Shown here in pieces: positions 6,854 through 46,900 of a stretch of DNA of 64,000 bases (its first letter is position 1; each line of letters starts with the position of its first letter). Both the position numbers and the translations under genes were made by a program. The DNA is taken from contig CAWGCR010000002.1 of NCBI GenBank assembly GCA_963821135.1, forward strand, positions 365,841 to 429,840. The letters are read 5' to 3'. The notes below the pieces were generated by a model. The model had not been told where the DNA came from and ran no database searches. It was given only the letters and a program-made list of their open reading frames with translations. The stretch comes from an uncultured Bacteroidales bacterium. Lineage in GTDB: Bacteria > Bacteroidota > Bacteroidia > Bacteroidales > UBA10428.

Positions 6854-6882
6854 ACTATGAGTATTACTTGCCTATTAATAAT

Positions 6883-9549: not shown

Positions 9550-9584
9550 TAGAGGGAAATAAATATTTTTACTCGAATACATTT

Positions 9585-19192: not shown

Positions 19193-19721
19193 TTATTTAT
19201 TATCGTGCTCCTTCTCCTGTTCTTTTATCTGAATTATCTTTTTGTCGATACTTTCAATTTCCTTTAGCAAAGTCTGTATTTCTGTGTCCTCCATTAAATG
19301 TTCGGGCAGACCATTTACAACACTTTTAACTGCCTGATATATATGTTTACCCAGTTTAGCCATAATCTTATCCCGTTCTTCCCCAAACTGTTTTATCTCC
19401 TGATTGTGTTTGTACGTATCAATTATTTCCTGGGCTTTATGCACCATTTCTAATGTAAATTCAGAGCCTGATTTGACAACTTCTTTTGCTTTCTCTCCGA
19501 TAGTTTGTGCATACTCACTCATGGTTTCGCCCACAACTTTTGCACCTTCGCTGATGTTTTCTTTGGTTTCTTCCCAAAAATCTTGCTGTTGATTTTGATC
19601 TTCGGATATCTTCTTTCTTGTCTTTCGTGTTTTTTCCTTTTGCTTCCGAATCTACTTTAGCCTGATCGGTATTTTGTTGTTCTTTTTGTTGTTTGGTATT
19701 GTTTTTATCTTTTGTTTCCAT
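19193..19721 (-). CDS. Hypothetical charged alpha-helical protein, probably one gene interrupted by a frameshift near 19600-19640
   Basis: ORFs 19515-19721 and 19193-19534 overlap. The second frame stays open well upstream of its first Met (…SEDQNQQQDFWEETKENISEGAKVVGETMSEY…). Homopolymer tracts (ttttttcc) are at the junction. Confidence 0.35.
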
Positions 19722-19795
19722 TTCTAATTGTTTTAATAGTTCTAATAATCAACTTTTCTCAATTTAACACATGGGTTTAGGCTATTTTTTATCAT

Positions 19796-21163
19796 TTATT
19801 GTCCTTTTCTTTTTAGCCGTCTTTTCCTACCGAGATAGAACAGTCCTGCAATAACCAGCAAGCCAACAATAATTAGTACACCCAGGAATTTTACCGCACC
19901 TGCTTTTTTTGCTCTTTTCGTATCAATTTCTGCTTGTTTTTCTGCCAAAAGTTTGCGTTCTGATGCAAGCTCGTATTTAATGCTTTCAATTTCAGTACGA
20001 TGGTTTTTCAAGTCTTCCTCTAAGGCTTCTAAAAGGCTTAAGTCACTTTCACCTTTTGCTTCCATAGCTTCTTCTTTTGCACCAGGCGATTTTTTTAATG
20101 CTGATTCCTGCTCTGATAGCAATGCCTCTTCCCTCTCTAATTGCGATTTTCGCTCAAGTAAATCCGACAATTCTGTACTGCTAACAAGAGCAATTTCGTT
20201 GTCGATGGAAGCTAGTTGTTTATTTATTTTTTGCTTTTGTTTGTTCAGTTTTTGTTCAGAATCTTTCAACTCCATCTTTTCTTCCTTTAGCATGACCAGC
20301 TCGCTGTTGAGCCTTTTTATTTCACCTTGTGTAAACGAATCAATGGTTTGCTTCCGGTTAAATTCTTTGGTCATCATATCAGTAAGATTTTTTTTGAGGG
20401 TGGCGAACTCATCCAACCATATATTGTTTGCTGAAACTATTTTTGTGGCCTTTTCGATTTTATCATTCTCGTTACCGATTTCTTCCTCAATATCAGCGAT
20501 TTTAGTGTCAAGCTTTCCAATTTCATCATCTCCTGCATTTTCAATAGTCAAATCGTTTTTCTCGCGTAAATAAATATTCTTTTCATCTTCGAACAGGGTT
20601 ATTTTTTGATTGGAAAGGTTAATTTTCTTTTTGTTGATGTCTATTTCTTTTTGTTTCGTAACTTTTTGTTTTTCAATTTTATCCAGGCGTTCGTCAATTT
20701 CTTCAATTCCAGTAACCATTACTCCCTTCGCTTGTTCTTTTTGTTCTATCAATTGGCCTTCCTTTATTTCCAATTTTTCCTTTTGATCATCCAAGTTGGC
20801 TAGTTCTTTTTTCAAGACTTTCAGACTGTCTTCAATAACATAAAGCTGTTCCTTAAGCCTTGACTGTTGCTCCTGCAAATCGCTTACTTCTTCTTTTTTT
20901 AGGGTTTGCTCAAACTCGGTGATTCTCTTTTCTACATCTTCCTTCTTTTTCAGAAGTTCCGATTCCTGCTTTTGCAACGAATCTTTAGCCCTATTATAAA
21001 ATTCTTCCGTTACTTTTTGCTCTTTTTCCAGCACTTCAACTTGCTTGTCAATAAGTTTTTGAGCCTCCTTTTTGTTGTCGGGCGATGTGCAGTTAACTAA
21101 TAATAGCATAAATGCAGTTCCCAAAATTAGTTTTCTCAGGTAGTATAAATTTTTCAGATGCAT
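19796..21163 (-). CDS. Long coiled-coil protein with N-terminal signal/lipobox-like Cys and C-terminal TM anchor
   Basis: 455 aa. MLLLVNCTSP near the N-terminus. ~400 aa of heptad-rich charged sequence. C-terminal hydrophobic helix (VKFLGVLIIVGLLVIAGLFYLG) plus basic tail. Confidence 0.55.
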   Translation of the reverse strand: MHLKNLYYLRKLILGTAFMLLLVNCTSPDNKKEAQKLIDKQVEVLEKEQKVTEEFYNRAKDSLQKQESELLKKKEDVEKRITEFEQTLKKEEVSDLQEQQSRLKEQLYVIEDSLKVLKKELANLDDQKEKLEIKEGQLIEQKEQAKGVMVTGIEEIDERLDKIEKQKVTKQKEIDINKKKINLSNQKITLFEDEKNIYLREKNDLTIENAGDDEIGKLDTKIADIEEEIGNENDKIEKATKIVSANNIWLDEFATLKKNLTDMMTKEFNRKQTIDSFTQGEIKRLNSELVMLKEEKMELKDSEQKLNKQKQKINKQLASIDNEIALVSSTELSDLLERKSQLEREEALLSEQESALKKSPGAKEEAMEAKGESDLSLLEALEEDLKNHRTEIESIKYELASERKLLAEKQAEIDTKRAKKAGAVKFLGVLIIVGLLVIAGLFYLGRKRRLKRKGQ

Positions 21164-28739: not shown

Positions 28740-29332
28740 TTATTTTTTTGCAGTATTCCTTTCACTTCAAATTTTACAGTAGCCACATCATCCATTCCTG
28801 CCATTTGATGATCTACCTCATAATCTAATCGATTAATTTTAGCTTCGCCGGTAATTGAGATTTCAGACTTGCTTAATTTCTTGATATTGAAAAAGACTGT
28901 TTCCTCTTTCTCAATTCCACGTATCTTTAGTTTTCCTCTGGTTTGATATTCATAATCATTGGCTATAGTATTCTTAGCTACCTGTTACTTGAGAACTCTA
29001 TATGAGGAAATTTCTCTGTATAAAAGAAATCTTCGGATTTAAGGTTATCATCTCTTTTATCAATTCCTGTACTTATTAATGAAACATTTATAAGGGCATT
29101 AATTTTTGGCTTATCATCATTTTTAAAAAATACGTTAATAATCGGCATCTTACCTTTTGCATTAAAAATAAACATGTTACCTATTTTGAATGTAAGCTTT
29201 GTTTTCATAAGTATCAAAATCCCAATTGCCTTTGTATTTTTCGATTGATGCAGACTGCGGAAACATACTTAAACTAAATGCCATTAAAAGGATTATACTT
29301 AAAACTGTTATCTTTTTCATAATTAATTGCGT
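28740..29332 (-). pseudogene. YceI-like periplasmic protein, disrupted by at least two frameshifts
   Basis: Signal peptide MKKITVLSIILLMAFSLSMF (hand translation from 29332). The middle ORF (28978-29217) ends …DFFYTEKFPHIEFSSNR, which is YceI-like. A C-terminal segment is in another frame (…GEAKINRLDYEVDHQMAGMDDVATVKFEVKGILQKK*). Confidence 0.55.
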
Positions 29333-29595
29333 TTTAATATTTTAACCTATTTATTATTAGTATAGTATTAAAATTCTATGCCACGATTTACATCGTCTTA
29401 AGCTAAAAGAGCTTAAACAAAGCTCATTCAAGGAATATAGTTAATTAATTATTAAGAAAATGTTTTATTTAAAGTGTGAATAATATTGGAGGGTGTGAGA
29501 AATAATAACACCCAAGTTTTGAGACACTAACATTTCGCTTGATCTTTAAAATCAACTATATATTCTTTCATTGTAATGTTTTTATGGTTCAATAT

Positions 29596-29982
29596 TTAAA
29601 GTGAGGCAATTACTTTCTCCAACTTTCCCTTCACTTTTTTTGCTATTTCTGAAAGTTCCTTATTTTCAATTGCCTGTATAGATGCAAATGGGTCAACAGC
29701 TGCAATTTCAACCTGATTATCATCAAGCTGTTGTACAACAACATTGCAAGGCAACATGGTTCCAATTTTATCTTCTTTTTGTAATGCCTGATAAGCCAAA
29801 GGTGGATTACAAGCTCCTAAAATCCTATATTTTCTGAAATCAACATCCAGTTTTTCTTTAAGCTTATCATGGATATCTATTTCAGACAATACACCAAAAC
29901 CTTCTTTTTGGAGGTCTTCTTTGGTTTTTGCAATGGCTGATTCAAAATCTGTGTTCAATGTTTTTTCTATATAATACTTCAT
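29596..29982 (-). CDS. DUF302-domain protein
   Basis: 128 aa with the typical DUF302 pattern (…GFGVLSEIDIHDKLKEKLDVDFRKYRILGACNPPLAYQAL…MLPCNVVV…). Confidence 0.7.
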   Translation of the reverse strand: MKYYIEKTLNTDFESAIAKTKEDLQKEGFGVLSEIDIHDKLKEKLDVDFRKYRILGACNPPLAYQALQKEDKIGTMLPCNVVVQQLDDNQVEIAAVDPFASIQAIENKELSEIAKKVKGKLEKVIASL

Positions 29983-29993
29983 AACTATTTATT

Positions 29994-32089
29994 TAATGGT
30001 TCGTCTTCATTTTACGTTTTAATAGTTGTGCGTTAATGGCTACAATAATAGTACTCAAACTCATCAATACCGCTCCCATAGCCGGATTAATAAATATTCC
30101 GGCATTGATAAAGTACACCTGCAGCCAGTGGTATAGCCACCACGTTATAGCCTGTTGCCCAGATAAAATTCTGTATCATTTTTTTATAGTGTTTCTTTAC
30201 CAAACAGCACCAATGAAGCAATGTCTTTAGGATTACTGTTTACAAGAATAATATCTGCTGTTTCTGCTGCTACATCGGTACCCGAACCAACGGCAATACC
30301 TACATCGGCTGTCGCTAAGGCTGGTGCATCGTTAATGCCATCGCCGGTCATAGCAACAAATTCCCCGTTTTTTTGAAATTCTTTTATTTTTTCCAGTTTC
30401 TGGTCAGGTAATATTCCGGCAAAATAGCCATCAAGACTCAATTCATCACTTACGCTTTTAGCTACTTTTTCATTATCACCTGTCATCATATACAATTTCA
30501 GGCCATTGTTTTTTAATGTTTTTACGGCTTCATACGATTCCGGTCGGATTTCGTCTGCCATGGCAATAAACCCGGCTAATTCATCATCAACCATTACAAA
30601 AACAACTGTTTCCTGCTCATTTTTATATGCATTTTTCGGAATTTCAATGTTCATGTTCCTTGACATATCCGGGGCTTACAACCTTTACTTTTTTGTTATC
30701 TACATCTGCTTCAATGCCTTTTCCGGTAATGGCATTAAAATTTTCAGCCTCGGGTATTTCGATATCCTCTTCTTTTATTTTATCCATAATGCCTATAGCC
30801 AAAGGGTGCTCAGATTTCGATTCCAGGGCTCCTGCCATTCTTAAAATTTCTTTGTCATCGAAATCTATCATTCACAGATATATATCTTGTCACGCCGAAA
30901 TTACCTTTGGTAAGCGTGCCTGTTTTGTCAAATGCCAGCAAGCTTATTTTTCGGGAATTTTCGAAAGCTGTACGATTTCGGATTAATAATCCTTTTTGTG
31001 CCGAAATAGAAGTTGAAATAGCAACAACCAACGGAACAGCAAGCCCCAATGCATGAGGACAAGTAATCACCATAACACTGGCCATACGCTCTAAGGCAAA
31101 AACAAAAGGCTTACCAATGATTAACCAGGTGGTAAGTGTTCCAAATCCCACGGTAAGGGCAATAATAGTGAGCCAGAAAGCAATACGGTCGGCCAGGTGT
31201 TGGGTTTTCGATTTTTTGCTTCTGTGCATCGCGTACCATATTAATTACTTTATTCAGATACGCATCTTCACCAACCTGTTTAACCCTAATTTTTAGTGAA
31301 CCGTTGCCATTTATAGTACCTCCAATAACCTTATCATCATTTCCTTTTTTTACCGGTTTTGATTCTCCGGTTACCATCGATTCATTCACATTGCTTTCGC
31401 CTTCTTTAATAACGCCATCAACGGGAATTTTTTCCCCAGGACGAACCAGCACCCATCTCCTGATTTTAGCTCATCGACTTTTACATCTGTTGTATCCCCA
31501 TTTTCCAGTCGGTGCGCTTCGGACGGCATCATTTCCACCAGCTTTTGAAGCGAGCGAGAAGCACCCATTACGGATTTCATCTCAATCCAGTGGCCAAGCA
31601 GCATAATGTCAATTAAAGTAGCCAGTTCCCAAAAGAATTTTTTGCCTTCCAAGCCCAAATGTGGTTGCCGAGCTATACCCAAAAGCTACCGTAATTGCCA
31701 CTGCTATAAGGGTCATCATGCCAGGTTGTTTCTTTTTTAATTCATCCACCAAACCCTTAAGGAACGGCCAACCACCGTAGAAATAAACAAATGCTGATAA
31801 GGCTGAAAAGGACATAACCAGAAAAGCTAAATGTGAAACTATAACCTAACAAGCCTTGTATCAAAGGGGAAAGAACCAGTATCGGAATGGTAGCTATGAG
31901 CGAAACCCAGAATCGTTTCCGAAAGTCAGTAATCATCATGGCATGATGACCTGAATGGTCATGCGAACCGTGTCCACCGTGTTGGTGATTTTTATGTTCC
32001 TGGTGTTTATGTTGTTTATGGTCATGATTATGTTCTGAATGATTTTTCATTTGTTTATAATTTATTTCAATTGCCAAATGGAACCGCAA
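29994..32089 (-). pseudogene. copB: His-rich-N-terminus P1B-type (CopB-like) heavy-metal ATPase, fragmented into at least 8 ORFs
   Basis: Fragments in order on the minus strand. 31757-32089: His-rich N-terminus (HNHDHKQHKHQEHKNHQHGGHGSHDHSGHH) plus first TM helices. 31386-31815: TM helices. 31111-31452: actuator domain ([14 protein letters not shown]…). 30855-31229: TM and CPx region, then phosphorylation site (FDKTGTLT). 30184-30871: nucleotide-binding/HAD domain (MTGDGINDAPALA…). Hand translation of 29994-30150 gives the C-terminal TM (…WATGYNVVAIPLAAGVLY…AINAQLLKRK*). Confidence 0.8.
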
Positions 32090-32281
32090 ATAAATTTAAT
32101 CATCCTATTGTGTGAAAATTTGGACGATTAAATTTAAATGCTTGTTTCATAATACATCATTTTTATGTTCTTTCTATTGACACATGAAAATTTTATACCA
32201 TAAATAATTAGTTGCAATGTTTAGCTTGTATTGCCCATGTATTCAATAAAATGAATTTTAAATTATTTTAATTGTATTTAT

Positions 32282-32325
32282 AATGTGGTAACAAATCCAC
32301 ACTGTTATGAATTTGTTACCACATT
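32282..32325. promoter_or_regulatory. Perfect 15-bp inverted repeat (AATGTGGTAACAAAT-N14-ATTTGTTACCACATT) between the HMA-like gene and copB
   Basis: Read directly from the sequence. It is either a strong terminator-like hairpin downstream of the 32352 stop, or an operator in the copB promoter region. Confidence 0.45.
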
Positions 32326-32351
32326 CTTGCAAAATCTATGATTGAATCTTT

Positions 32352-32723
32352 TTAATGCATATGACCACTATGGTCTTCTTTCTTAGCAGGTGCTCTATCA
32401 TATTGACAACAGCCCGGTAATGCATTATAGGCTTCATCTTTCGCTTTGTGCATTTCTGTATCATGACCTGCTTTGGCTATAGCCATGTGAACTTTATGCA
32501 CATCGGTTTTGGTGCTGTCAAATGAAACCGCTATCATTTTGGATTCTTTGTTCCAATCGGCTGTTGTTAAACCATCAACTGATTTTGCTGCTTTTTCGAT
32601 ACGGCTTTCACACATACGGCAGTTTCCATATACTTTGAATTTTGCTGTTTTTGCTTGCCCAAATACCGTTGTTAAGCTCATCAGAGCTATTACCATTGTT
32701 AAATAAATTGCTTTTGTTTTCAT
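32352..32723 (-). CDS. Secreted HMA-like metal-binding protein (CxxC + C-terminal CCQY)
   Basis: 123 aa, signal peptide, GNCRMCESRIEKAA (CxxC in an HMA-like ferredoxin-fold context) and PGCCQYD near the C-terminus. Confidence 0.55.
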   Translation of the reverse strand: MKTKAIYLTMVIALMSLTTVFGQAKTAKFKVYGNCRMCESRIEKAAKSVDGLTTADWNKESKMIAVSFDSTKTDVHKVHMAIAKAGHDTEMHKAKDEAYNALPGCCQYDRAPAKKEDHSGHMH

Positions 32724-32751
32724 ATCTTAAAATTTAATTGATTAGTAAAAA

Positions 32752-33039
32752 TTACTCTCTTGTATACTGGCAGCAAGAAGGTAGATTTTCATATGCTTCC
32801 TGCGATGCTGTTTCTTTTTCTGTATCATAACCAGCGTTGGCTATTGCTTTATGGATTTCAGATAGGTTTACTTTATCCTTATTATAGGATAGGTGTATTT
32901 CCTTAGTTTCAGTACTCCATTCTGCCAAATTAACGCCTGTCAAACTGCTTGCAGCTTTCTCAATTGTAGATTTACACATTTCACAATTTCCTGAAACCTT
33001 AAACATGGCTTGTTCTATATTGGCATCCATATTATTCAT
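32752..33039 (-). CDS. HMA-like metal-binding protein, paralog of 32352-32723 (CxxC + CCQY)
   Basis: SGNCEMCKSTIEKAA…PSCCQYTRE. The ORF track extends to 33075, but that portion overlaps the 3' end of the upstream adaptor gene. The start is probably MNNMD… at ~33039. Confidence 0.5.
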   Translation of the reverse strand: MNNMDANIEQAMFKVSGNCEMCKSTIEKAASSLTGVNLAEWSTETKEIHLSYNKDKVNLSEIHKAIANAGYDTEKETASQEAYENLPSCCQYTRE

Positions 33040-33063
33040 TTTAGGTTCAGGTTGTTGGTGTGC

Positions 33064-34444
33064 TGATATGGTCAACCTCTACTGTTTCTTTTATTTCCAT
33101 ATTGCCCTGCCCGTCCGGCAGGCGGGCATGATTGTGTTCTGTAGAAACATTTACCACCTCCGGGATTCATCATACTTGGTATTACCTGTCAATTGTGCTG
33201 CAGCATCAATTTTAAATACTCCATTGGTTGCAATTTCTTCACCTTCATGTAAACCTTCTGTCAACAATATAAAAATTACCTGCTTCTGGTCCTAGAGTAA
33301 TTTCACGATATATAAATGAAGGCTTTTCTCTGTCCTGGTACTTTAACATATACTACGGCTCTTTTTCCTGTCCATAAGAATTGCTGATTTTGGAATCAAT
33401 AAGTTCATTGCGTATTTTCAGCAATATTTGATTTCAGAAATTCCATTTGCAAACATTTCCGGTTTTAGATTCTAGATTTGGATTATTTAATTCAACCCGA
33501 ACTTTTGCCACTCTTGTTTGTAGCATCAATAAAAGGATCGATAAATGTTACTTTTCCATGAATATTTTTCCCGGGAATGATTGAATTGTAAATTCAATTT
33601 ATCCCTATTTTTAATCCAGGGCAAATCACTTTCATAAGCATCAAACATTACCCAGACCTTTGATAAATCAATTACTTCAAATAAAGCAGTAACCTTCTTT
33701 TACATAATCACCAATGGAAATATGCCTTTTTGTAACTGTTCCGGTAATTGGAGATTAGAATTTCAAAGTATTCTTTGGTTCTCCATTTGTTTCAATAGCA
33801 TCAATTTGTTTTTCAGTTAAATCCCATAAGTTTTAATTTGGTGCGGGTGAACTTTGTAAAATGAAGGATTTGATTCTTTGTATTTTACGGCTTCAAATAG
33901 TTCTTTTTGTGCGGTTATTAATTCGGGTGAATAAATTGTCCCCAAGCTTTTGACCCTTTTTTACATTTTGTCCGGTATAGTTGATAAAAAGTTTTTCAAT
34001 TCTTCCACCAAATCGTGCTGTAAGTTGCGATATATTTACGTTCATCTGCTTTTACTTTACCAAATAATTGAATCGATCTTTTTCAGGCATATCCCTTTTT
34101 AACAATTGTTGTTTGAATCTCTGCCAATTTCATTGCCGATTCAGTCATCTGAATTTCATTTGGGTCAACATCTTCACCTTCGATCTGCACTGATGCCATC
34201 GGAACTAATTCCATTGCACAAATAGGGCATAAACCCGGTTTGTTTTGCTTAATCTGTGGGTGCATTGAGCATGTGTAAACTAGTTTCTTCAACTATCGGT
34301 TCCTGTTCGTGATACGTGATGTCAGCTGTTTCTAGTTCTCTGAAGAATGAAAAAACAACCAACCCAAAAAATAAGCCTGCAATCAGTAATGTATATCTAA
34401 TATCAGTTTTTATATCTTGTTTTATTATTTATATTTGTTTTCAT
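33064..34444 (-). pseudogene. cusB: HME-RND periplasmic adaptor (CusB/CzcB-like), heavily frameshifted
   Basis: Hand translation shows MKTNINNKTRYKN* near 34444, then in another frame a TM helix (LLIAGLFFGLVVFSFF). ORF 34083-34292 carries the metal-binding N-terminus (YTCSMHPQI…GLCPICAMEL). Downstream are many short shifted ORFs. The C-terminus (…MEIKETVEVDHISTPTT*) ends at ~33064. Confidence 0.55.
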
Positions 34445-34462
34445 CTTAATTTGTATTTTTAA

Positions 34463-35719
34463 TTATTTCCCATTAAATAATGTGATAAATGCTACAGCTG
34501 CTTCTTTATCGGCTGTTGCTTTTTCAAGTTCCAAGAGCATATTTTAAAAGCTTCCGTTCCATTCGTAATATCTCTTCAAAATTTATATCATTTGTGGCAT
34601 ATTCTGATTCAAGAATATGAAAGTGACTTTTCTGCTAATTCTAATTGCTTATTGATATAAGTGAATACCTTCTGTTTGCATCCTGATAATCTTTCCAAAC
34701 ACTTTCAAATAAGACTGTTCAAGAGTATTTTCCTTATCAGTTTTTTCATTTCTCTTTTGCTTCTTGCAGAAAGACCACTTCCTTAACTTTTGACTTTGTA
34801 TTTTTTTCGATACAGAGGAATGGTTAATACCAACTTTAGGAAACACAAAAGCATCTTGTCCTGCATTGATTGCCGTTGAATTACCTTTTCCAATGAAAGT
34901 ATAGTCAATTCCAACATTGAGAATTGTGGCAAGCCCTTCTTTTGAGGCAGACTTCTTGCGATATTCTAAACCTTCAAGTTGATAATCGAATGCAGCTAAA
35001 CTGATGATTATTTAGCCATTAAACTATCCAAGTCCAGCTTGTTTAAAAGCAACATTACTGTCCAGAATTCTCAGGAATTTGAACACTTGAAATTCACATC
35101 AACATTTAACAAATTGTTGAATTTCACTTTTAAAGCGTTTGAATTATCTTTCAACAAAGCCAACTGATTTTCAAGGTCGTTAATTTCCATTTCCACCCGT
35201 AATTCATCAACAGCTGATGCATGAACCTGATTCGATTTTAATATTTGCCAAGCCTTTGAAAGAGGTTAGAATTGCGATATTCTCTAATTGTAATTCCAAT
35301 TGCTTTTTTATTAAAGATACAAGATTAAAATAGGTAGCTTTAACATCAAAGAATAATTTTGATTTAGCTTCTTCAAATATTTCAAATTTTGCTTTAGCCA
35401 ATGCTTCATAGCCAAATTTTCTCTTGCTCATAAAGTTCCAAACCAGGGAAACATTTGTGTAAGCGGATATTTTTGCTTGTTGAGGCCCATCTTGTTTCAA
35501 CAGGCTGAATGAAATACCCAAATGCAATTGTAGGGTCAGGTAATGCTCCCAACTTGTGGAACTCATCTCTAAGCGAAGCCAGATATTCATTGAATTTTGC
35601 TTTTAGTCCCGGATTGTTTTCAGCAGCAGTTTCAAGATATTTTTCAATCTTCTTGAGCAGAAATAATTCCTGATAATCAGCAAAAGAAATGATCAGTATA
35701 TAATATTATATGTTTTCAT
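34463..35719 (-). pseudogene. cusC: TolC-family outer-membrane efflux factor, frameshifted
   Basis: N-terminus by hand translation: MKTYNIIY* then …LEKYLETAAENNPGLKAKFNEYLASL…LPDPTIAFGYFIQPVETR, a typical Bacteroidetes OMF start. ORF 35207-35590 carries OMF helical repeats. The C-terminus ends …ATADKEAAVAFITLFNGK*. Confidence 0.55.
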
Positions 35720-35754
35720 GTATACCTTTTCTTTTAATGATTTAGACATCTTTT

Positions 35755-38700
35755 TTACATTTCTCTCCTGCCACATACTATAGAGCACAGGAACAACAAA
35801 AATGGTAAGTATGGCAATGAGCATTCCTCCAACTGTGGGATTGCCATCGGAACCATAATATCAGAACCTTTTCCTGTTGATGTTAGTACAGGCAATAAGG
35901 CAATGATTGTTGTTGCAGTTGTCATCATTGCAGGGCGAACCCTTTTTAATCCGGCCTCCAAAACATTTGCACGAACTTCCTCAATGATTTAGGTGCTTTC
36001 TTATCAAATAATTGTTTTAGATATGTACTTATAAGTACACCATCATCTGTTGCAATTCCAAATAAAGCAATAAATCCTACCCATACTGCAACACTCAGAT
36101 TAATGGTATGAATCTGAAACATATTCCTGTAAATGAATTCCAGCCAACTGTGAAATTCATAAACCATGACTGACTATATAACCAAAGCATGATAAAACCA
36201 CCTGAAAATGCAACCAAAATTCCTGAAAATATCAAACTTGCTGCAGTAACTGACCTGAATTGGAAATAAAGGATCAGAAAAATCATAATCAAGTGAAATA
36301 GGAATTACAATCAACAATCGTTTTGTTGCCCTTATCTGATTTTCATAGTTTCCTGTAAATTTATAATTTACCCCGGTGGGATACTTATAATACTCCTTGT
36401 TCAATTTTTTCATTTAGATAATCTTGAGCATTTTCTACCACATCAACTTCTGCATAACCTTCCTTTTTATCGAAAATTACATAACCCACTAAAAAGGTGT
36501 TTTCACTTTTAATCAATTGCGGTCCACGGGTATATTTGATAGTTGCTAATTCACCTAATGGAATTTGAACCCCTGAAGGAGTTGGAATAAGAATTTTTTT
36601 CAAATCTTCAGGATTATCTCGGTATTCCCGAGCATATCGTACCCGAACAGGAAAACGTTCACGGCCTTCAACTGTTGAAGTCAATGGCATCCCGCCAATA
36701 GCACTACTTAATAGTCATTTGAAAATCCTGCAATGGTTAATCCGTAGCGGGCAATAGCATCACTGATTAATATCAATTTCCAGATATGGTTTACCAACAA
36801 CCCTGTCGGCAAAAACAGACATTCGGTTTAACACCTTCAACATTCTTTAAATGATTTTCCAAGTTCGAAATCCAACTTTTTCAATAGTTTCCAAATCTGG
36901 CCCAAAAACTTTAATTCCCATTGGCGCGCGCATTCCTGTTTGCAACATTACCAAACGTGTTTGAATGGGTTGTAATTTTGGCGCAGAAGTTAATCCGGGA
37001 ATGTTTGATTGTTTAACAATTTCATCCCAAATATCATCAGGAGATTTTATATTTTCACGCCATTGCCGGAAATATTCTCCTTTTAATCTTCGGATTAAAT
37101 TGATCTTTTTCGATTACTCTGAAATTCATCTGTTTTTGGATTATAAGTTGCTACCATCCATTAAATACAAATGCACCTTCCTTATTCACTTTAAATCGAA
37201 TTCGATGACCATTTTCATTCAACATGAATTCCGATTTATAATTGATTACATTCTCAAACATTGAAATTGGGCAGGGTCAAGAGCTGAATTTACACGGCCC
37301 CATTTACCAACAACATTATCAACTTCCGGAATTGCATTTACCTTTTTATCAAACATTCGAATAACTTCAAGGTTTTCTTCAATCCGGAATGAGGCATGGT
37401 TGTTGGCATTAATAAGAAATGAACCTTCATCTAGTGCTGGCATAAATCTTTCCCAATACCAGGAAATGTTTTATTAAATGATTGCCATACTTTGACTTCT
37501 CTTAATGTATCAGGCATAAATCCAAACATCTTATCGAATCCTTGCCATGTAAATTCCAAATAGAACAACAAATATTGGAATGCTTAAAAATTTCCATTTA
37601 TTAGCTAATGCCCATGTTAAAATTCTCGAATAAGAATCTGACAACCAATAACATTGCAGCTAAATACTAACTCCAATCAATAATCCGACGAAGAAAAATT
37701 TGAAAAATCACTGTTCTGCGCACCCAAGTGGCATCCACTCTTTTGTGAGTAGCCAAGTAACATAACCATAACCAATGCTAAATAGGAGAATCGAATCAAC
37801 TATGAATAATAATCGTTTCCATTGTCTCAGGTAATTGGAATTTTACTTCTCATTATTAATCCCTTTTGAGGGCATCCATTTAAAGTCAAGAAGATTGTTA
37901 ACACCAATACCAACTAAGGCAATGGCTATAAATATCTTTACCAAAGAATATAAAGCTTATACCTCAATAAGTATGAAAATTGCATTTAGAACTTGCTTCG
38001 TCTTTTTTCTATCAATTTTAATTGAGAAATATAATATGAGCCATAGCTGGAATAATGACCAAACCAATAATTAATGCTGAAAGCATCGCAAAGGTTTTTG
38101 TGAAAGCCAATGGTTTAAATAATTTTCCTTCGGCTGCTTGCATTGCAAATACAGGTAGAAAACTAACTATAGTAGTTGTTAAAGCCGTGATAACTGCAGG
38201 TGCAACCTCTACTGTAGCATCATAAATTATCTTTAAGTAGCTTTCCTCTCCTTTATTCTCCAGTCAACTCGATATGCCGGATAATATTCTCTGTAAATAC
38301 CACTCCGACATCCACCATTACACCAATTGCAATTGCAATACCTGAAAGAGCAACAATATTAGCATCTACACCAAACCTCCGCATGGCAATAAAGGTCATT
38401 AATACTCCAATAGGCAGTAAACTTGAAATAAGAAATGATGCACTTAGATTAAGAACCAGAATAATAATTACGATGATACTGATAAAAACTTCGAAAGTAA
38501 GTGCTTCTTCCAAGTGTTCCAAGTGTTTCTTTAATTAAGCCTGTACGGTCATAGAAAGGAACAATGGTAACCTTTGAAACAGTTCCATCATCCAATATTT
38601 TAGATGGCAATCCGGTTGAAATTTCTTCAATTTTGTCCTTAACATTATTGATGACCTCCAAAGGATTTGCTCCGTATCTGGCAACAACTACACCACCAAC

Positions 38701-39604
38701 TGCTTCAGCACCTCCTTTATCTAATCCCCCTCTTCGACGTAGCTGGCCCAAAACTTAACTTTTGCTACATCTTTAATCCTGAATTGGGATATTGTTTTTC
38801 ACGCTAACAACACTCTTTTCAATGTCTTCAAGACTTTTAATATATCCTAAAGCTCTGATCAAGATATTCTGCACGGTTAAACTCAATGGTTCTTGCACCA
38901 ATATCCAGGTTACTCTTTTTAACAGCATTCATTATTTGAACGACAGAAACACCATGGCTTTCATAGCATTAGGGTCAATATCTACTTGATATTCTTTAAT
39001 AAATCCACCAATAGATGCCACTTCAGAAACTCCTTTGGCAGCAGTTAAACCATATTTTACATAAGAAGTCTTGTATGGTTCTTAACTCATGGGGATCCCA
39101 TCCCCATTTGGGTTTCCTTTTTTGTCACGTCCTTCGAAAGTGTACCAATAAATTTGTCCTAATGCTGTCGCATCTGGCCCCAATGCAGGGTGTTACTCCA
39201 TTGGGTAAAGTTCCAGCTGGTAAGAGAATTGAATTTTTCAAGTATTCGGGTTCTACTCCAATAGAATTCAATATCTTCATCAAAAATGATGTAAATACTT
39301 GATACTCCGAAAATAGAATTACTCCGAATGGTTTGTAACACCGGGAATACCGAATAATGCAGTTGTTAAGGGATAGGATATTTGGTCTTCAATATCCTGT
39401 GGTGATTGTCCTGCCCATTCGGTGTACACGATTTGTTGGTTTTCACCAATATCAGGAATGGCATCACAGGAACAGGGTCAGAAGGAAGAAACCTGTTTCC
39501 CAACTGAATGGTGACGAAACAATTCCCCAAGCGATAAAAATCGCAAGTAGCAGGAATGTCACCAACTTATTCTCTAAAAAGAATTTTATGATTTTGTTCA
39601 ACAT
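35755..39604 (-). pseudogene. cusA: CusA/CzcA-family heavy-metal efflux RND transporter, fragmented into >12 ORFs
   Basis: N-terminus by hand translation from 39604: MLNKIIKFFLENKLVTFLLLAIFIAWGIVSSPF…[17 protein letters not shown]…, continuing into ORF 39159-39341. Fragment 38253-38751 has …AIGVMVDVGVVFTENI… Fragment 36385-36690 is the periplasmic C-terminal domain. Fragment 35755-35961 has the C-terminal TM (RVRPAMMTTATTIIALLPV). Confidence 0.75.
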
Positions 39605-39712
39605 ATCTTATGAATTTGATAAACATTCTATTTATAAAAAGTTACGGCAATTAAATTGCATAACAATACAACTCGGTTATAAGGTGAATTGTAAATCAGT
39701 AAAATAGAATAT

Positions 39713-40090
39713 TTAACATAGATATGTTTGCAGTATAGAAAGGCGGGTTTGAATTGTAGGCGGTGGCAAAGCATCGTAAAAAGCCACAATCGCTTTATCT
39801 TCTTCATCTAACAATTCAAGATTAAGAACAAATAATATTGGAAATAGAATATCAAGTTGAATGACTTCAATATTGTTAATCTGAACCGGACTTATATAAT
39901 CATCTTCAACTTCAAAGTGGAGTGTTTTATTCTCACAACATCCACCTTTTCCATCGCAACAAGTTTTAGCTTCTTTATAAATGGATGCAGATACTATTTT
40001 TCCTCCACAGTAATGTATAGAAAGGGTTATTCCTGTAGTTGCAACCATTAGGAATAAAGCAAAAATAATATGTGTTATTCTTCTAAACAT
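39713..40090 (-). CDS. Cys-rich small membrane-anchored protein (HYCGG…CCDGKGGCCEN), candidate metal-binding protein
   Basis: 125 aa, N-terminal TM/signal. The segment HYCGGKIVSASIYKEAKTCCDGKGGCCENK holds 6 Cys in ~25 residues. First gene of the RND cluster; intact. Confidence 0.45.
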   Translation of the reverse strand: MFRRITHIIFALFLMVATTGITLSIHYCGGKIVSASIYKEAKTCCDGKGGCCENKTLHFEVEDDYISPVQINNIEVIQLDILFPILFVLNLELLDEEDKAIVAFYDALPPPTIQTRLSILQTYLC

Positions 40091-40096
40091 TATTAC

Positions 40097-40122
40097 ATTT
40101 AAAACATTTTGAAATTAAAAAT
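40097..40122. terminator. AT-rich hairpin (AAAACATTTTgaaattAAAAATGTTT) downstream of the GH65 gene stop
   Basis: Inverted repeat read from the sequence. It lies in the 37-bp gap between the GH65 stop (40128) and the Cys-rich gene start (40090). Confidence 0.35.
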
Positions 40123-40127
40123 GTTTA

Positions 40128-42523
40128 TTAAATTTCATATTCAACCGAATCATTTTTTTCAAACACCTTCGATTTTCCTTTTACATTTATTTTAATGGGT
40201 TGTTTTAACCAACCCTGATCAAATTCTACGCTTAGCTTTTTATGGTTTATATGTAGTTTTATCCAATGGCTGCGGTAACGGATTTGAAGGCTTATTTCCT
40301 TTACTTCTTCCGGCAAACGGGGATTAAGCCACAACATTTCATGGCGTATTTCCAATCCGGTGTAACAGCGCTGGATAATATCCACTGTACCTGCCATTGC
40401 ACCCAAATGTATTCCTTCGGGCGTAGTTCCTCCCTGTACATCTTTCACATCGCTTAAAAGTGCTTTTTTAAAATTATGCCACGACCGTTTTCTGTCTGAC
40501 CGTGCCAAAACCCAGGAATAAACCACCTTGCTGAGTGTAGGACCATGGGATGTTATTTTTTGATAATACGCAATGTTTTCAGGGATTTGCTGGGGTTTGA
40601 ATTCATATCCCAATCGACTGAACATCTCTACCAATTTACTGGACGAAAAAAGGTAAAATAACATGATAACATCAGCCTGCTTGTTTGCCCGGTAGTTGTT
40701 TGGCGAATCATTCTCTTTTTCTAAAATACGATCTAAGCGCATCACTTCGCCATGTTTTTCGCGGTATTTCTTCCAATCCAGTTCTTTTAGCTTATCAAAC
40801 CCTTCGAACTGCATAATAATGTCTGTCTTCATTGAACGGTATATACATTTTCCTGGTTAGCTTCTTCCAAGATATCCACATCATCTTGAACTACTCCTGT
40901 TTTTTCAAAAAGTTCTTTCACAAATTCATCGTCAAACAATTCTATAATATCGAGGGCACATTGTATTACCCAAACAGCCATAAGATTGGTATAGGCATTG
41001 TTGTTTAAACCAGGCGAATCAGAACCCGGATAGCTGGTATGGTATTCATCGGGACCCATCACACCCCGGATTTCATATCTGTCGCGTTTGGGGTTATGTT
41101 CGGCAATACTAGACCAGAAAAGTGCTGTACTAAGAATAATTTCAGCGCCATAACCGGCCAAAAAGTCTATGTCGCCGGTAGTTTGGTAATATTGCCACAC
41201 ATTATAAGGAATGGCCGCATTGATATGTCTCTGTAACCTGGAATTGTCAGGTATCCAACGTCCTGATTTTGGGTTCAGGTGAATCATCTGGCTTTCTTCA
41301 CGACCATTACTACCGCTTTGCCAAGGGTACATAGCCCCCGATACCCATTTTTTTCAGCTGCCTCCCGTGCTTTTGGCAAGCGTCGATAGCGGTACATAAG
41401 CAGGGAACGGGCAAGGTGAGGATTGTGCAAATTGATAAATGGGAATATAAATAATTCGTCCCAGAATATGTGACCACGATATGCTTCGCCATGCCACCCG
41501 CGTGAGGGTACGCCTATATCGTATCCAACACTGTGTTTGGAAATTGATTGGTACAAATGAAAAATATGCAGACGCAATATGAAAATATCTCCATTTCCTG
41601 TTTTAACATCAAAATTGCTATGCTTCCAAATTTGCGACCATGCTTTTTTGTGTTTATCCATAACACTTTTAAAAGACTTGGTTTGAGCCACTTTATTTTT
41701 GGCTTCGTTCAGCGGGTCACTAATGGCAAAATCATTTCGAAGTATAAGGGCTTACCAACTTCTCAATACGAACAGGCTCTAGTTTGGAACATTTAATTTT
41801 TATATCCTGCCATACCGATTTCTCGTCACTATATGTCTGTCTTGGGGCATTTAGTTCGTTTTCATTCTGAAAAAGCTTTGTGCCTGCTGCCTGAGCCATG
41901 AGAATTTTTGATTGCTTGGAAGTACAGGTCAGATAGATATAATTTTCGTTAAATTCGCCTTTATCGTTAATATCAATGTGTTTTCCGTTTAAATCACTAT
42001 AGCGTTTAACACCATTGTTGGTAATGTTACCATTAATGCCAGAGCGAACCGTAAATTTTCCTGACCAGTTTTCAGGTATGATTGTCCACTCAATTCCGGC
42101 AAGGTGCGGGTCGTGCATGCTCACTATGCGTCGGCTCAGGATAGAGGTTTCACGTTTATTCGCATCGCGAAATCTGATTTTGCGTTCAAGCACTCCTTCT
42201 TTAAGGTGCAGGCGAACCACGTAATCCAAAACTTCTGTTTTTTGAATGTCGAGCCAATCTTCTTGTTCAATGTTTATGGTCAACATTAACCAGTTTGGCC
42301 AGTTCACCAAATCTTCGTTTTCGATTTTTTTATCCTTAATTTCTGAGACTGCACGGTTATATCCTCCTGCCAGGTATGTGCCCGGATAGTTATACTCATT
42401 ATCGGCAGCGAATTCCAAAGCACCTCGTGTAGCGAAATAGCCATTTCCTAAAGTACACAGGGCTTCGGTTAGCGGATGTTGTTCCGGGTTCCAGTTATTG
42501 TATTCCAGTATCCAATTGTTCAT
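40128..42523 (-). pseudogene. GH65 family disaccharide phosphorylase (trehalose/kojibiose/maltose phosphorylase-like), split by 3 frameshifts
   Basis: Four consecutive ORFs (41732-42523, 41284-41691, 40829-41332, 40128-40832). The GH65 catalytic region is present (GWHGEAYRGHIFWDELFIFPFI; MYPWQSGSNGREES). Confidence 0.75.
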
Positions 42524-42535
42524 CGTATTGTTTAT

Positions 42536-44102
42536 TTAGGCCGATAATTCCTGAAGAAATAAACGTACCTGGTACACATTTTTCAGTGCATATTTAGCGG
42601 CACTGGGTTGTTCATGAAACCCGACCAATATGCCTATACCTTTGTCTGATAGCGTACGGAAAGCATCTTCGTCTGTGACATCATCTCCTATGTAAATGGG
42701 CAGCATTTCCGGGTTTTTGTCAAAACCCAGCTTTTCCATTATCCAGTTAATGGCTTTTCCCTTGTGCCAGTCAACATCGGGCTTTATTTCCACAATTTTT
42801 TTGCCTTCGCCTTTTTTAAATCCCGGATAACGCGCCAGTAAAGCATTCGCTTTTTCCTTTATTTTCAGGTTCGTTGTCTTCCCCGGCATTTCTGAAATGC
42901 ACACCTACAGCATAGCGTTTTCTGTCAATTTGCACACCTTCTATTTCTTTTAACGATGTGCTCAGTTCTTTTTCTATGTGGTCGAGTTTGGGCAATATCT
43001 CTTTTGATTTTTCATGTTCCATGTATAGCCCGTTAGGTCCTGATATTCTAAAGCCATGACTACCCGCATAAATAAGGTTTTCGATATCTACCCTGCTTTT
43101 TACATCGTCCATATCCCTGCCACTTACTATGGCTACAGAAAATTTTGATGCGCATTGTTCAATCACGTTTTTCATTTCTTTTGAAAGAATGGCATCTTCC
43201 GGGCGTTTTACAATTGGTGAAAGGGTACCATCGTAATCCATGAATAGTACAAGTGTTTTATCGGCTGCAATATCATGAAATTTTGTTTGTTTCGAAAAGG
43301 CTGATGGCAAAGATTGGGTGAAGTAGGGTTCAATTTCCCGGTTGTTGAATAAGTCGATTTCTTTCAGGTTTTTCACTACAACATCAGCGCCGTTTTCGTA
43401 CAGTATGGTTTCATTATCGGTTCGGCTAACCCCTATTACAAAAGCGAAATTGCCTTTACTGCCGGCCTGAACTCCCGATATGGCATCTTCAACAACCACG
43501 CATTTTTCCGGACTGGTTTCCAGTTCATGTGCAGCCTCAATGAATATATCGGGTTCGGGCTTTCCTTTTATTCCTTTATCTTCTGCTACCTGACCGTCGA
43601 CCCTTGCATCAAAAAGATTATCGACACCAGCAGTTTCAAGAACGTGCTTGCAATTTCTGCTGGATGAGACTACGGCAGTTTTTAACCCGTGGTACCGCCA
43701 ATGTTTGATTTGTTGAATGGCATTCTCATAAACGTCTACACCCCTGTCGTGCAACAAATTTAAAAAAAGTGCATTTTTTTTGTTTCCCAGGCCATGAACG
43801 GTTTGTTCATCCAATGCGTCATAAGTAGAACCTTCCGGCAAATCTATGTTTCTTGATTCAAGAAAACTTTTTATACCTCCCAGCCTCGGTTTTCCATCGA
43901 TGTATTGGATATAGTCTTCATCAGTCATCAATGGGTAGTCTTTATTTTGTTTTTTCAAAAATTCATTAAACATTTCTTTCCAGGCTTCTTTATGTTCTTT
44001 AGCCGTTTGGGTGATTACCCCGTCCATATCGAGAATCACGGCTTCCATGCCTGAAATTTTAAGTTGTTTTTTATCTGCTTGCTCTATTGTTTGCGTATCC
44101 AT
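42536..44102 (-). pseudogene. Beta-phosphoglucomutase-like HAD domain fused to trehalose-6-phosphate phosphatase (OtsB-like) domain; frameshift near 42860-42900
   Basis: N-terminal HAD with DMDGVITQT (DxDG). Second half has FMDYDGTLSPIV (T6PP motif I). ORF 42536-42904 supplies the OtsB C-terminus (DWHKGKAINWIMEK…IYIGDDVTDEDAF). Confidence 0.7.
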
Positions 44103-44146
44103 TTAATAATTATTTATTTTATTTTGTTTAACCAATTGTGTTGCGT

Positions 44147-45083
44147 TTATGAATCAGGCCTTAACCAATCGTTTATTTTATCTGTATCGACTTTTCGGCA
44201 CAATTCAGAACCGGGGGTCATGGCGGCGGCTGTCCCTGCCGAGACACCATACCTGGCAGCATGGGGTGGCCACAGCCCTTTTGCCAGACCCGTAACCATT
44301 CCTGCTACCATTGAATCTCCAGCACCTACTGCGCTAATTACTGGCATTGTTGGGGGTACAATGTAGTTAATGACATCTGTGTTATGGGCAATCATTGCCC
44401 CTTTAGCACCCAATGAAAGAAGCAAAATGGAACAGGCTTCTTTTTTAAGAAATTCTTTGGTTGCTTGTTCCTGTTCCATTCCTGTTATAAGCTTCTTTTT
44501 CTAGCAGTTCTGCCATTTCACGCAGGTTGGGCTTTATCATGTACACCCCTTCATTAAGTGCTATTTTTAGCGGCGTACCCGAAGTGTCCAGAATCATACG
44601 TATGTCATTTTGGTTACAATGCCTTGCCAATTGCGCATAAAAATCATCAGGCACACCTGGTGGCAGGCTTCCACTGGCTGCGAGGTAAGCTGGTTTTTGT
44701 TTTATTTTTTTTAATTCTGACAAAACGTTTTTCCAGTTTTCTTCTTTAATAGCATTGCCCGGCATACCAAAACGGTATTGGTTGTTTGTTGTCTCGTCAA
44801 GCACCATCAGGTTTTCCCGAACATTTACCCCTGAATCTATTTGTTTGTTATGGACGCCTTCTTCATTAAGTAATTTTACTAAGGAATTACCGTTAGTGCC
44901 TCCTGCCAAAAAGAATGCTACAGAATCGCCGCCCAGTTTTTTAATAGCCCGCGATACATTTATTCCACCACCACCGGGGGCGAAAGAAGGCGTTTTGCAA
45001 CGGATTTTCTTTTCCGGTACAACCAGTTTGGCGCTGGTGTTTTTATCCAGTACGGGATTCATGGTAAGCGTAACAATCTTCAT
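44147..45083 (-). pseudogene. PfkB-family sugar kinase (1-phosphofructokinase/tagatose-6-P kinase-like), one frameshift near 44470
   Basis: N-terminal half has the GG motif (FAPGGGGINVSRA). The C-terminal ORF carries PfkB signature 2 (AVGAGDSMVAGMV). Confidence 0.75.
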
Positions 45084-45094
45084 GGTAGTATGAT

Positions 45095-45927
45095 TTATTT
45101 TGATTCGGTAAGTATGGACATAGCTTCCGGTGACAATACCCTGAATGTGAACGATTCGGTTAGGTACAATTTCACTTTTTCGTTGGTATGGCTATCATAT
45201 CCAATGCTCATGTCCTGTCCGAGTGTTAGCTCAAAATCGCCTCCTCTTTCCGTAACAAGATAAGAATTGGTATTGCTGTGATTAATAATAATCCGGCCTT
45301 CTATTATTTCCTGTAGTTGCTTTAAAATAGGATAACCTTTGGCCAGGTTTATCAATCCCTGCCATTTTTTTTCGTTTATTGCAAGGGTATATGGACCCTG
45401 AACACCATCTTTCCGAAGTTTCATTACTTCGGCGCCTATACTTTTTAAAAATTCATTGGGGTCATCGGGCAGGATTACTGCTTTATGTGAAGCACTTTTT
45501 CCAATCCTTTTATCCGGCCTTCTTCAAAACCTTTATAAATGGCGGTATCTTCAAAAAGAGCTATTTCTTTAGCCGCGTTTTCTAATGGTTCTAAATCTAT
45601 ATCTTTTGCGCCCCGGCTCAAATTATCCAACTCCCATATTTCCAGTTCAAAGGGTTTTCTTATTTCAATAAAAGGCATAATTTCCCTCAAGCCATAGTTG
45701 ATTCCCTCTTTGGATTGTTTTTTGGGAGTTATAAGTCTTCCTGTGGAAACACCTCCCTGTTCAAGGCCTGTTGGCCCTTCAATATCAACAAATTTGCGTG
45801 CAGTGAGATGTATTTTAAATATGGCGGAAGCCTGCTCTGTTATTTCTTTCCAGGCGGCTTCTGTGATTGGTGCTATGGATTTCTTTAATATGTTCATAAT
45901 TATTTTTTTTGACGTTAGATAATACAA
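45095..45927 (-). pseudogene. Family 1 encapsulin nanocompartment shell protein, one frameshift between 45424 and 45475
   Basis: N-terminal ORF (LKKSIAPITEAAWKEITEQ…ARKFVDIEGPTGLEQGGVSTGRL) and C-terminal ORF (RGGDFELTLGQDMSIGYDSHTNEKVKLYLTESFTFRVLSPEA) both match HK97-fold encapsulin (linocin M18) conserved blocks. Confidence 0.8.
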
Positions 45928-46000
45928 ATCAGGGAATAGAGGTTGGGCGGTAGAATTGTATACATAAATTTACAATCAGTACCTTTTTAACTTTTAAATG

Positions 46001-46291
46001 CTACTCTCCTTCAATTTTTACAATGTCTTTTTCGGTGAACAGATAGGTTTTTAAGTGCTCTTCCCATCCGTCCATGTTTCTGCGGAGCCATTCCAGTACC
46101 ATACAGGCATGTTCCATTTCTTCATCGCGATTATGTTTTAATATTTTTATTAATTGCTTGTCTGTTGCTGCATCCATGCGTTGCTGGTACCAGTCAACGG
46201 CCTCAATTTCTTCTTTTAAAGAATTTAAGGCGCGCATATAATCTTTTGTTTCTTTTGAGAGAAGTTCTGGGGGTTCATGATAATTCTTCAT
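46001..46291 (-). CDS. Encapsulated ferritin-like protein (EncFtn) cargo
   Basis: 96 aa. HEPPELLSKETKDY…EAVDWYQQRMDAATD…HNRDEEMEHACMVLEWLRRN…HLKTYLFTE matches the EncFtn family essentially block-for-block (ExxH iron site). Directly upstream of the encapsulin gene. Confidence 0.8.
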   Translation of the reverse strand: MKNYHEPPELLSKETKDYMRALNSLKEEIEAVDWYQQRMDAATDKQLIKILKHNRDEEMEHACMVLEWLRRNMDGWEEHLKTYLFTEKDIVKIEGE

Positions 46292-46398
46292 AATATTTCT
46301 GATTTGTATTTAACTGTTTACACTTCGCCTTAGCCCAAGTTTTTTTGTATTCCGAGTGGATTAATGGAAGGGCCATTTTTTTATAGCAATAAAAAGGG

Positions 46399-46900
46399 CT
46401 ATTCAATTCGTAACGATTTAGCCATTTTCATGAATTGCTCTTTGAGCTTAGTATTGTTCGAGTTTGCTGTATTTAAATAGGCATTTACCCGAATCAGACT
46501 ATCTGAACGGCTAACCAATACTTCAGCGGAATCTACTTTGTAAATTTTGCCTGTATATCCGTCGTCAAAAGAGAATTCGTGTGTTGTCTGATGAGCTGAT
46601 AAAAACTGATCATTCTCGTTTACTATCATTTCACCATAAACTTTTATTTTAGATCCAGAATAAGAAGTAGAAATGAAATAGCCATCCCCGTTATCACTTA
46701 CATCTATAGCATTCCAGCTTTCCGGTATACTAAAACTAAAGTGGTACCTGGCATTACATATTTTCTGATAGTTTATGTTTCTGTATTTCTTTATTCTTTT
46801 GCTGACAACTATTGCATGAGTACAACCCACTTACCAGTATAAAAATGCAATACCTGATAACAATTGTATAGCTATTTTTTTTCCTCGCATGTGTTATAAA
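46399..46900 (-). CDS. Hypothetical (lipo)protein, N-terminal signal region disrupted by a frameshift
   Basis: 143-aa ORF. Upstream in another frame: [19 protein letters not shown] (hand translation), suggesting a broken signal peptide. Confidence 0.3.

Follow-up and report, generated by a model that had tools for sequence, protein, structure and literature searches.

Dense small indels in a copper/silver resistance module of an uncultured Bacteroidales bacterium: probable consensus noise over an operon that is probably intact

The 64,000-nt stretch of DNA analysed here (the window) belongs to a genome assembly of an uncultured Bacteroidales bacterium (GCA_963821135.1, contig CAWGCR010000002.1, positions 365,841 to 429,840). 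At 29.6-40.1 kb it carries a block of heavy-metal resistance genes whose reading frames are interrupted at about 96 sites. A preliminary description, made from the sequence alone, had presented this block as an almost completely pseudogenized copper/silver resistance island or, alternatively, as a very low-quality assembly patch. The evidence favours the second option over the headline of decay: in our judgement the disruptions are most likely non-biological insertion and deletion (indel) noise, a low-quality patch of consensus over a Cu/Ag resistance operon of standard Bacteroidota type that is itself probably intact. All coordinates are positions within the window, and all genes of the module lie on the minus strand.

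Between 29.6 and 40.1 kb only the minus strand is coding. The longest open reading frame (ORF) there has 163 aa, compared with up to 911 aa in the rest of the window. The four large genes, situated between 29996 and 39604, are all shattered, as the preliminary description stated, and no ORF in that interval exceeds 163 aa. The gene identities it proposed (CopB-like ATPase, CusA RND pump, CusB adaptor, outer-membrane factor, DUF302, HMA and Cys-rich proteins) are upheld by family profiles. The first gene of the module codes for a Cys-rich protein of the HYC_CC_PP/DUF8199 family (39713-40090). It is intact, reaches 61 bits with NCBIfam NF047658 (cutoff 28) and over its full length shares 73% identity with the DUF8199 protein located upstream of CusA in L084, an intact Bacteroidota locus (GCA_965183885.1, OZ238992.1). 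Next comes a CusA/CzcA-family heavy-metal RND pump (35729-39604), which in the sequence as given has no single uninterrupted frame, its longest ORF piece covering about 109 aa. Stitched across 42 disruptions (27 of type +1, three +2, ten -1, one -2 and one in-frame stop), it is 90.3% identical to the 1265-aa CusA of L084 in frameshift-aware alignment and exceeds the TIGR00914 cutoff (758 bits vs 701). The outer-membrane efflux factor (OMF; OEP/TolC-like, 34466-35719, 21 disruptions) is, once frame-corrected, 77% identical to the 410-aa OEP protein of L084, and Pfam OEP matches it in the two stretches expected of a protein with two OEP repeats (E=1.6e-28).

The CusB-type membrane-fusion protein (MFP; 32755-34444) carries an N-terminal HMBD and a C-terminal HMA domain. 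Its stitched form combines HlyD_D23 (E=1.5e-68), HMBD (8.8e-11) and HMA (3.9e-8) in one protein, the same domain set as in intact CusB homologues of 601 aa (L035) and 631 aa (L084), and frame-corrected identity to the latter is 77%. Every one of its 25 disruptions lies upstream of 33064. It is followed by a free-standing, CopZ/MerP-like HMA protein of 124 aa (32355-32726), which is intact, matches Pfam HMA and is 85% identical to the 121-aa HMA protein of L084; its hydrophobic N-terminus looks like a signal peptide. A 26-mer taken from this gene as an exact query found no match in metagenome contigs. Five proteins of the window (DUF302, the Cys-rich protein, a 222-aa reductase, a 234-aa piece of GH65 and the 499-aa BON protein) were looked up by exact sequence and likewise had no record. 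The small genes had been described as intact, which holds for the DUF302, HMA and Cys-rich proteins, all three aligning end to end with intact homologues with zero events. It does not hold for a second HMA-like gene at 32755-33078: what was read as a gene is the end of the broken CusB, its C-terminal HMA domain, and it aligns to that domain in the intact CusB of L084 and L035.

The P1B copper ATPase (29996-32050) contains eight frameshifts (seven +1, one -1) and no stops. It scores 617 bits with TIGR01511 (cutoff 397) and is 91.7% identical in amino acids to its intact homologue P0001. In nucleotides it is 87.5% identical to a metagenome contig, L081, which together with the CusA of L084 (90% amino acid identity) represents the nearest intact relatives of the broken genes. 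The stitched protein has the motifs DKTGT and GDGINDAP, a His-rich N-terminus (MKNHSEHNHDHK...) in place of CxxC HMA domains, and a CPH motif (VITCPHALG); CPH together with a His-rich N-terminus we take to mark the CopB subgroup of P1B ATPases. The last gene of the module, downstream of the ATPase, is an intact DUF302 gene (29596-29982; Pfam DUF302 E=2e-26), and the ATPase-DUF302 pairing is also present in L081, L082 and L083. On the minus strand the module reads HYC_CC_PP/DUF8199, CusA, OMF, CusB (HMBD + HMA), HMA protein, CopB-type ATPase and DUF302. Judged by these families, the underlying locus is a standard Bacteroidota (Marinilabiliales-like) module of predicted copper/silver resistance. 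The P1B ATPase would move copper from cytoplasm to periplasm, the tripartite RND pump would expel periplasmic Cu(I)/Ag(I) through the outer membrane, and metal would be handed over by the HMA and HMBD domains, all as known for the respective families.

Intact counterparts of these genes are plentiful. The stitched 683-aa ATPase and the RND pump of about 1250 aa have thousands of intact homologues in Bacteroidales/Marinilabiliales genomes and metagenome-assembled genomes (MAGs), the best BLASTP identities being 91% for the ATPase (P0001) and 84% for CusA (P0121). Related loci present a co-oriented module in which each gene is a single ORF: a small Cys-rich protein (DUF8199/HYC_CC_PP), CusA of 1265-1274 aa, OEP of 410 aa, CusB of 601-631 aa, at least one small HMA protein, the ATPase and finally DUF302. 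The intact modules of L084, L028, L035 and L026 have the same genes, order and strand as the window, and L028 shows an identical seven-part layout; unlike the window, each of their genes is a single ORF. The comparison with related Bacteroidetes loci that had been suggested as a check therefore yields single ORFs everywhere, and the indel pattern of the window is unlike natural decay. The order RND-OMF-MFP, taken at first for atypical, is instead the rule in this clade, since it occurs in all 12 fetched related loci with a full-length CusA. Escherichia coli cusCFBA with copA employs the same families (CusA/CzcA RND, CusB adaptor, OMF, P1B ATPase) and the same inferred mechanism. It differs in its gene order (OMF-CusF-MFP-RND), in possessing CusF, in place of which the CusB of the window bears HMBD/HMA domains and is accompanied by a free HMA protein, and in its CopA-type ATPase, that of the window being CopB-type (His-rich, CPH).

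The cus block as a whole (Cys-rich protein, CusA, OMF, CusB and HMA protein; window 32044-40126) is an insertion relative to L081. The two sequences are syntenic at window positions 50107-40126 and 32044-29801, and between the GH65 gene and the ATPase, where the window has the block, L081 (9720-10007) has only a 48-aa SHOCT gene. In another sequence, L004, both flanks have matches that lie only about 3.1 kb apart, leaving no room for the block. Neither repeats flanking the block nor genes of mobile elements were seen in the window. Repeats or IS elements bounding the island, and with them a possible assembly gap, were considered and rejected, as the window contains no meaningful repeats.

Disruptions were counted with a custom aligner of protein to DNA that treats +1, +2, -1 and -2 frameshifts as separate states, using the closest intact homologues as references (L084 for the cus genes, P0001/L081 for the ATPase). 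Instead of the roughly 30 breaks first estimated, frameshift-aware alignment finds about 96, a density about three times higher: 42 in CusA, 21 in OMF, 25 in CusB and 8 in the ATPase. By type they comprise 64 +1, 12 +2, 15 -1 and three -2 events and two in-frame stops, although some of the "+2" events may represent a -1 event combined with an in-frame codon difference. More distant reference homologues give the same picture, and in a control on intact homologue DNA more divergent than the window the aligner reported 0-1 events per gene. Frame-breaking deletions longer than 2 nt are absent, and CusA, OMF and the ATPase contain no amino-acid gaps; longer indels are seen only as in-frame length differences in naturally variable loops. 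One in-frame stop, in OMF at 35430, is a TGA where the homologue has a TCG serine codon. The other, a TAA at 37845, lies in a variable loop of CusA (amino acids ~573-600), where hidden compensating pairs may be miscounted, the stop included. This loop (window 37740-37880) has about 20 extra codons compared with L084 and repeats a KWMP/KEWMP motif; indels that compensate each other may have gone undetected in it.

Most events (88 of 96) fall into a core block at 33064-39486, one per 74 nt, with spacing near Poisson (coefficient of variation 0.83). The edges of this block lie inside CusB and CusA, away from gene boundaries. In the adjacent 682 assessable nt, composed of the CusB HMA domain and the HMA gene, no event is found (P=1e-4 at the block rate); the HMA domain at the C-terminus of broken CusB thus has no indels, although it cannot be translated. 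In the ATPase the events are evenly spread, two per 500 nt.

The indels are all of 1-2 nt, and insertions outnumber deletions 76:18, or about 4:1. Nucleotide alignment of the ATPase with seven intact relatives reveals the extra bases directly (tgaTaga, acaTgaa, ttcAgcc), and they are not extensions of runs. To characterize the context, we determined for each of the 64 +1 events the base removals that best restore the protein match and scored the longest homopolymer run to which the inserted base could belong. The observed fractions for runs of 1, 2, 3 and at least 4 nt are 0.48, 0.33, 0.17 and 0.02. Simulations that insert random bases at random positions of these genes give 0.47-0.51, 0.26-0.28, 0.15 and 0.08-0.10; duplication of a neighbouring base gives 0.04, 0.40, 0.32 and 0.24; and a homopolymer model gives 0.04, 0.01, 0.01 and 0.95. 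The insertion context matches the random null, and the 15 single-base deletions likewise agree with random deletion. Nearly half of the insertions (48%) cannot belong to any run and only one of the 64 touches a run of 4 nt or more, so that the homopolymer signature which the preliminary description had proposed to count is absent. The unambiguous inserted bases are A (12), T (10), G (4) and C (1). Homopolymer slippage, whether as sequencing error or as natural replication slippage, is rejected by the context simulations, and homopolymer-type error of 454, Ion Torrent or nanopore sequencing by the lack of concentration in runs. Motif-linked systematic error of the methylation type was also discarded, as no common motif is apparent by eye around the 27 unambiguous insertions.

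Among 151 curated bacterial pseudogenes, insertions and deletions number 300 and 396 (ratio 0.76); the deletions average about 19 nt, with 131 of 396 being 1 nt and 44% at most 2 nt, and the insertions average 4.5 nt (PMC6054270). Against this spectrum the excess of insertions in the window has P=7e-14 and the restriction of all deletions to at most 2 nt P=4e-7. In wild-type Vibrio mutation-accumulation lines indels occur at about one fifth of the substitution rate, mostly in simple repeats, and in mismatch-repair mutants single-base indels concentrate in homopolymers (PMC5854121). A random substitution in the codons concerned creates a stop in 4.9% of cases. Were each indel accompanied by 5-10 substitutions, 23-46 in-frame stops should have arisen, and two are observed (P<=3e-8); the deficit persists at two substitutions per indel (P=0.005). 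Columns invariant across 120 homologues are retained in 379 of 383 cases in CusA and in all 222 in the ATPase, together 601 of 605, and the four CusA exceptions are located beside frameshift sites or within a poorly aligned loop. From this count, neutral substitution divergence comes to no more than about 0.7%, as compared with an indel density of 0.84% for CusA and ATPase taken together. The ratio of nonsynonymous to synonymous substitution rates (dN/dS), calculated against the nearest intact homologue, is 0.068 for CusA, 0.089 for the ATPase, 0.093 for CusB and 0.15 for OMF. Intact genes of the same loci range from 0.05 to 0.26, and the broken genes are not raised. The marks of neutral decay, namely deletion bias with broad lengths, nonsense codons, loss of invariant residues and raised dN/dS, are thus missing, and those of random indel noise are present: random position and base, 1-nt events, indels far in excess of substitutions, and a density that follows position and not function.

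The breaks are not confined to the island. Immediately beyond DUF302 lies a YceI-like gene (approximately 28760-29330, minus strand) with at least two frameshifts: a 79-aa ORF matches positions 7-84 of the 150 of Pfam YceI, and in three-frame translation its frame runs 1, 2, 1. This gene sits between DUF302 and an FNR-type reductase in an AT-rich stretch (28.5% GC). On the other side of the module, the GH65 glycoside phosphorylase (40128-42523, minus strand) is divided into four ORFs by four frameshifts (three +1, one -1) relative to the 798-aa protein of L081, and the pieces match consecutive parts of Pfam Glyco_hydro_65N, 65m and 65C. The HAD/trehalose phosphatase (42534-44102, minus strand) has two frameshift events, and comparison with L081 proteins reveals further ones in PfkB (one), encapsulin (one) and a 163-aa hypothetical protein (two). 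These five genes, with 1-4 frameshifts each of the same kind as in the island, belong to a stress-related block (40128-46900) that is syntenic with L081 and also includes the EncFtn cargo of the encapsulin (Linocin_M18), an Fe/Mn superoxide dismutase, a short-chain dehydrogenase and a BON-domain protein. At a greater distance, OtsBA (54039-56110), in which a GT20 trehalose-6-phosphate synthase (OtsA) is fused to a trehalose phosphatase (OtsB), is broken up into three or more overlapping ORFs; its two resolvable shifts fit +1 insertions, and a further cut in the phosphatase domain falls near 54039. In the pyruvate dehydrogenase E2 gene (5584-6880) a frameshift interrupts the lipoyl domain and a TAA stands in frame at 6124-6126, and this gene of core metabolism is unlikely to be a true pseudogene.

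The event density is strongly non-uniform, with zero events in about 17 kb at 10-28.7 kb. The uninterrupted ORFs first reported there do exist: the stretch from 10.2 to 28.7 kb contains long ORFs only, among them NDH-2, aconitase, MscS and MlaDE, without a break. Ten ORFs, nine of them in this stretch, were scanned against Pfam, and their domain matches carry no sign of truncation. The pyruvate dehydrogenase E1 gene just upstream (6883-9618, 911 aa) is intact as well. The preliminary description had taken such contrasts to show that the break density is local and had argued from this for genuine decay. The argument fails, since the density varies in patches over the entire window and the edges of the core block lie inside genes. 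Because breaks also affect neighbouring and housekeeping genes and 10.2-28.7 kb is clean, the defect is a positional patch with a dense core, thinner shoulders and a few outliers, and not a property of metal-resistance genes.

Genuine pseudogenization, in which the Cu/Ag module and some neighbouring stress genes would be decaying by real mutations while selection keeps the small genes, can account for several of these observations. The disruptions are densest in accessory metal-resistance genes, and the cus block is missing from the syntenic position in L081 and has no match in the short interval of L004. The DUF302, HMA and Cys-rich proteins are intact, 21 kb of nearby housekeeping genes are free of breaks, and both the OMF TGA at 35430 and the E2 TAA at 6124 resemble single substitutions. 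We nevertheless regard this explanation as unlikely. It would require an unprecedented mutational spectrum, with a 4:1 excess of insertions and no event above 2 nt where natural pseudogenes have a deletion bias and broad lengths (PMC6054270), and with at most two nonsense codons where 23-46 would be expected, indels arising at about one fifth of the substitution rate in wild-type Vibrio lines (PMC5854121). Retention of nearly all invariant residues, unraised dN/dS and the 48% of inserted bases that are non-templated singletons are equally hard to reconcile with it, as is the breakage of pyruvate dehydrogenase E2 and OtsBA. Selection, moreover, cannot explain why the untranslatable HMA domain of CusB was spared (P=0.015-0.02 in a rough Poisson estimate at the block rate). 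The pseudogenes of the leaf-nodule symbiont Candidatus Burkholderia resemble the window in having many frame-disrupting indels per gene; they differ in having more deletions than insertions (insertion:deletion ratio 0.76), indel lengths distributed as a broad power law and an accumulation of substitutions (PMC6054270), in contrast to the 4:1 insertions, sizes of at most 2 nt and lack of detectable substitution load found here.

A mixture, with one or a few real inactivating mutations in the operon and most events being technical noise on top of them, appears more doubtful again. The two in-frame stops of the island and the one in E2 do differ in class from the indels, and a handful of true lesions among the 96 would be compatible with the sequence, yet no individual lesion is positively supported as real. 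The CusA stop at 37845 falls within a loop that aligns badly and probably conceals pairs of indels, and the tests of residue conservation show no relaxation. It is also conceivable, though very improbable, that the indels are real and very recent, produced by a localized insertion-biased hypermutation that added non-templated single bases in vivo over the tract of about 6.4 kb and its shoulders before substitutions accumulated; repeated error-prone break repair or some template-independent activity not yet known would be candidates, for example. Least credible of all is biological recoding, with frames restored by programmed ribosomal frameshifting, transcriptional slippage or RNA editing. Such correction would yield functional products, as the frame-corrected proteins are perfectly conserved, but the approximately 96 sites share no motif or slippery homopolymers, require shifts of both signs, are placed at random with Poisson-like spacing, and the same events affect unrelated genes. 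We know of no bacterial system that edits or shifts at such a density.

We favour an artefact over decay because the indels are of 1-2 nt, show an excess of insertions, a random context and no substitution load, leave dN/dS unchanged, and break neighbouring and housekeeping genes too. The noise would consist of about 96 mostly single, mostly inserted bases at random positions, concentrated in the 6.4-kb patch 33064-39486, with shoulders of lower density that extend over about 28.9-46.9 kb and isolated events in other parts of the window. Such noise would arise where a consensus of error-prone single-molecule reads has low coverage locally or was left unpolished, as in a long-read gap fill or an accessory region of low depth; some other corruption of the record might have the same outcome. 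An accessory segment at lower depth, or one needing a long-read bridge, would fit the absence of the cus block from relatives. The genes themselves are probably intact in the organism.

Indels that fragment genes are a known product of long-read assemblies (PMC12007338), and reference-based correctors such as Kastor (PMC12007338) and Homopolish (PMC8011154) deal with such errors, or "false pseudogenes". Like false pseudogenes of long-read or hybrid assemblies, the genes of the window have a fully conserved frame-corrected translation, are dominated by indels and are hit in patches that follow position, not function. They are unlike typical residual nanopore errors, being insertion-biased and not associated with homopolymers, and for a finished consensus their local density of about 1.35% would be very high. 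Lacking any link to homopolymers, they resemble neither nanopore nor 454 or Ion Torrent errors.

Several points weigh against an artefact. Its technical origin is something we infer and do not see. A patch with about 1.35% indels and less than about 0.7% substitutions beside 21 kb without a break requires a mosaic consensus, which is plausible but unproven. An error-free stretch of 682 nt lies between two error-bearing ones, and all three free-standing small genes are intact, as selection would also give. The inserted bases look purely random and AT-rich, so that no specific platform fits cleanly. About half of the insertions in PacBio CLR (continuous long reads) are expected to copy the neighbouring base. 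CLR was considered as the source and set aside: its errors are expected to be dominated by insertions, but one simulator paper gives other proportions, and we name no platform.

At face value, the sequence would be read as a case of lost copper/silver resistance and as a rare island of dense decay; most likely both readings are wrong, and a standard Cu/Ag export module is probably at work in the organism. Four checks that need only the sequence part false from true pseudogenes in such cases: the size, sign and context of the indels, the number of in-frame stops, the retention of invariant residues, and the spill-over into housekeeping neighbours. The same checks mark the assembly for polishing at about 28.9-47 kb and a few other spots.

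Some further observations concern the ATPase. It is 87% identical in nucleotides to L081, as against 75-80% in the syntenic flanks and only 67% amino acid identity for DUF302, and this higher identity suggests stronger constraint or more recent exchange. CopB-type relatives with 74-84% amino acid identity occur in MAGs labelled as other phyla (loci L002, L003, L010, L023, L024, L036, L053 and L080), the labels being Hyphomicrobiales, Spirochaetes, Polyangia, Krumholzibacteriota, Fibrobacterota, Atribacterota and others. The distribution points to wide horizontal transfer or to binning contamination. Elsewhere in the window, a 455-aa minus-strand ORF at 19796-21163 has no Pfam match; its region displays an AT skew of about -0.37 and a GC skew of about -0.20, and short imperfect direct repeats are present nearby (19631-20073).

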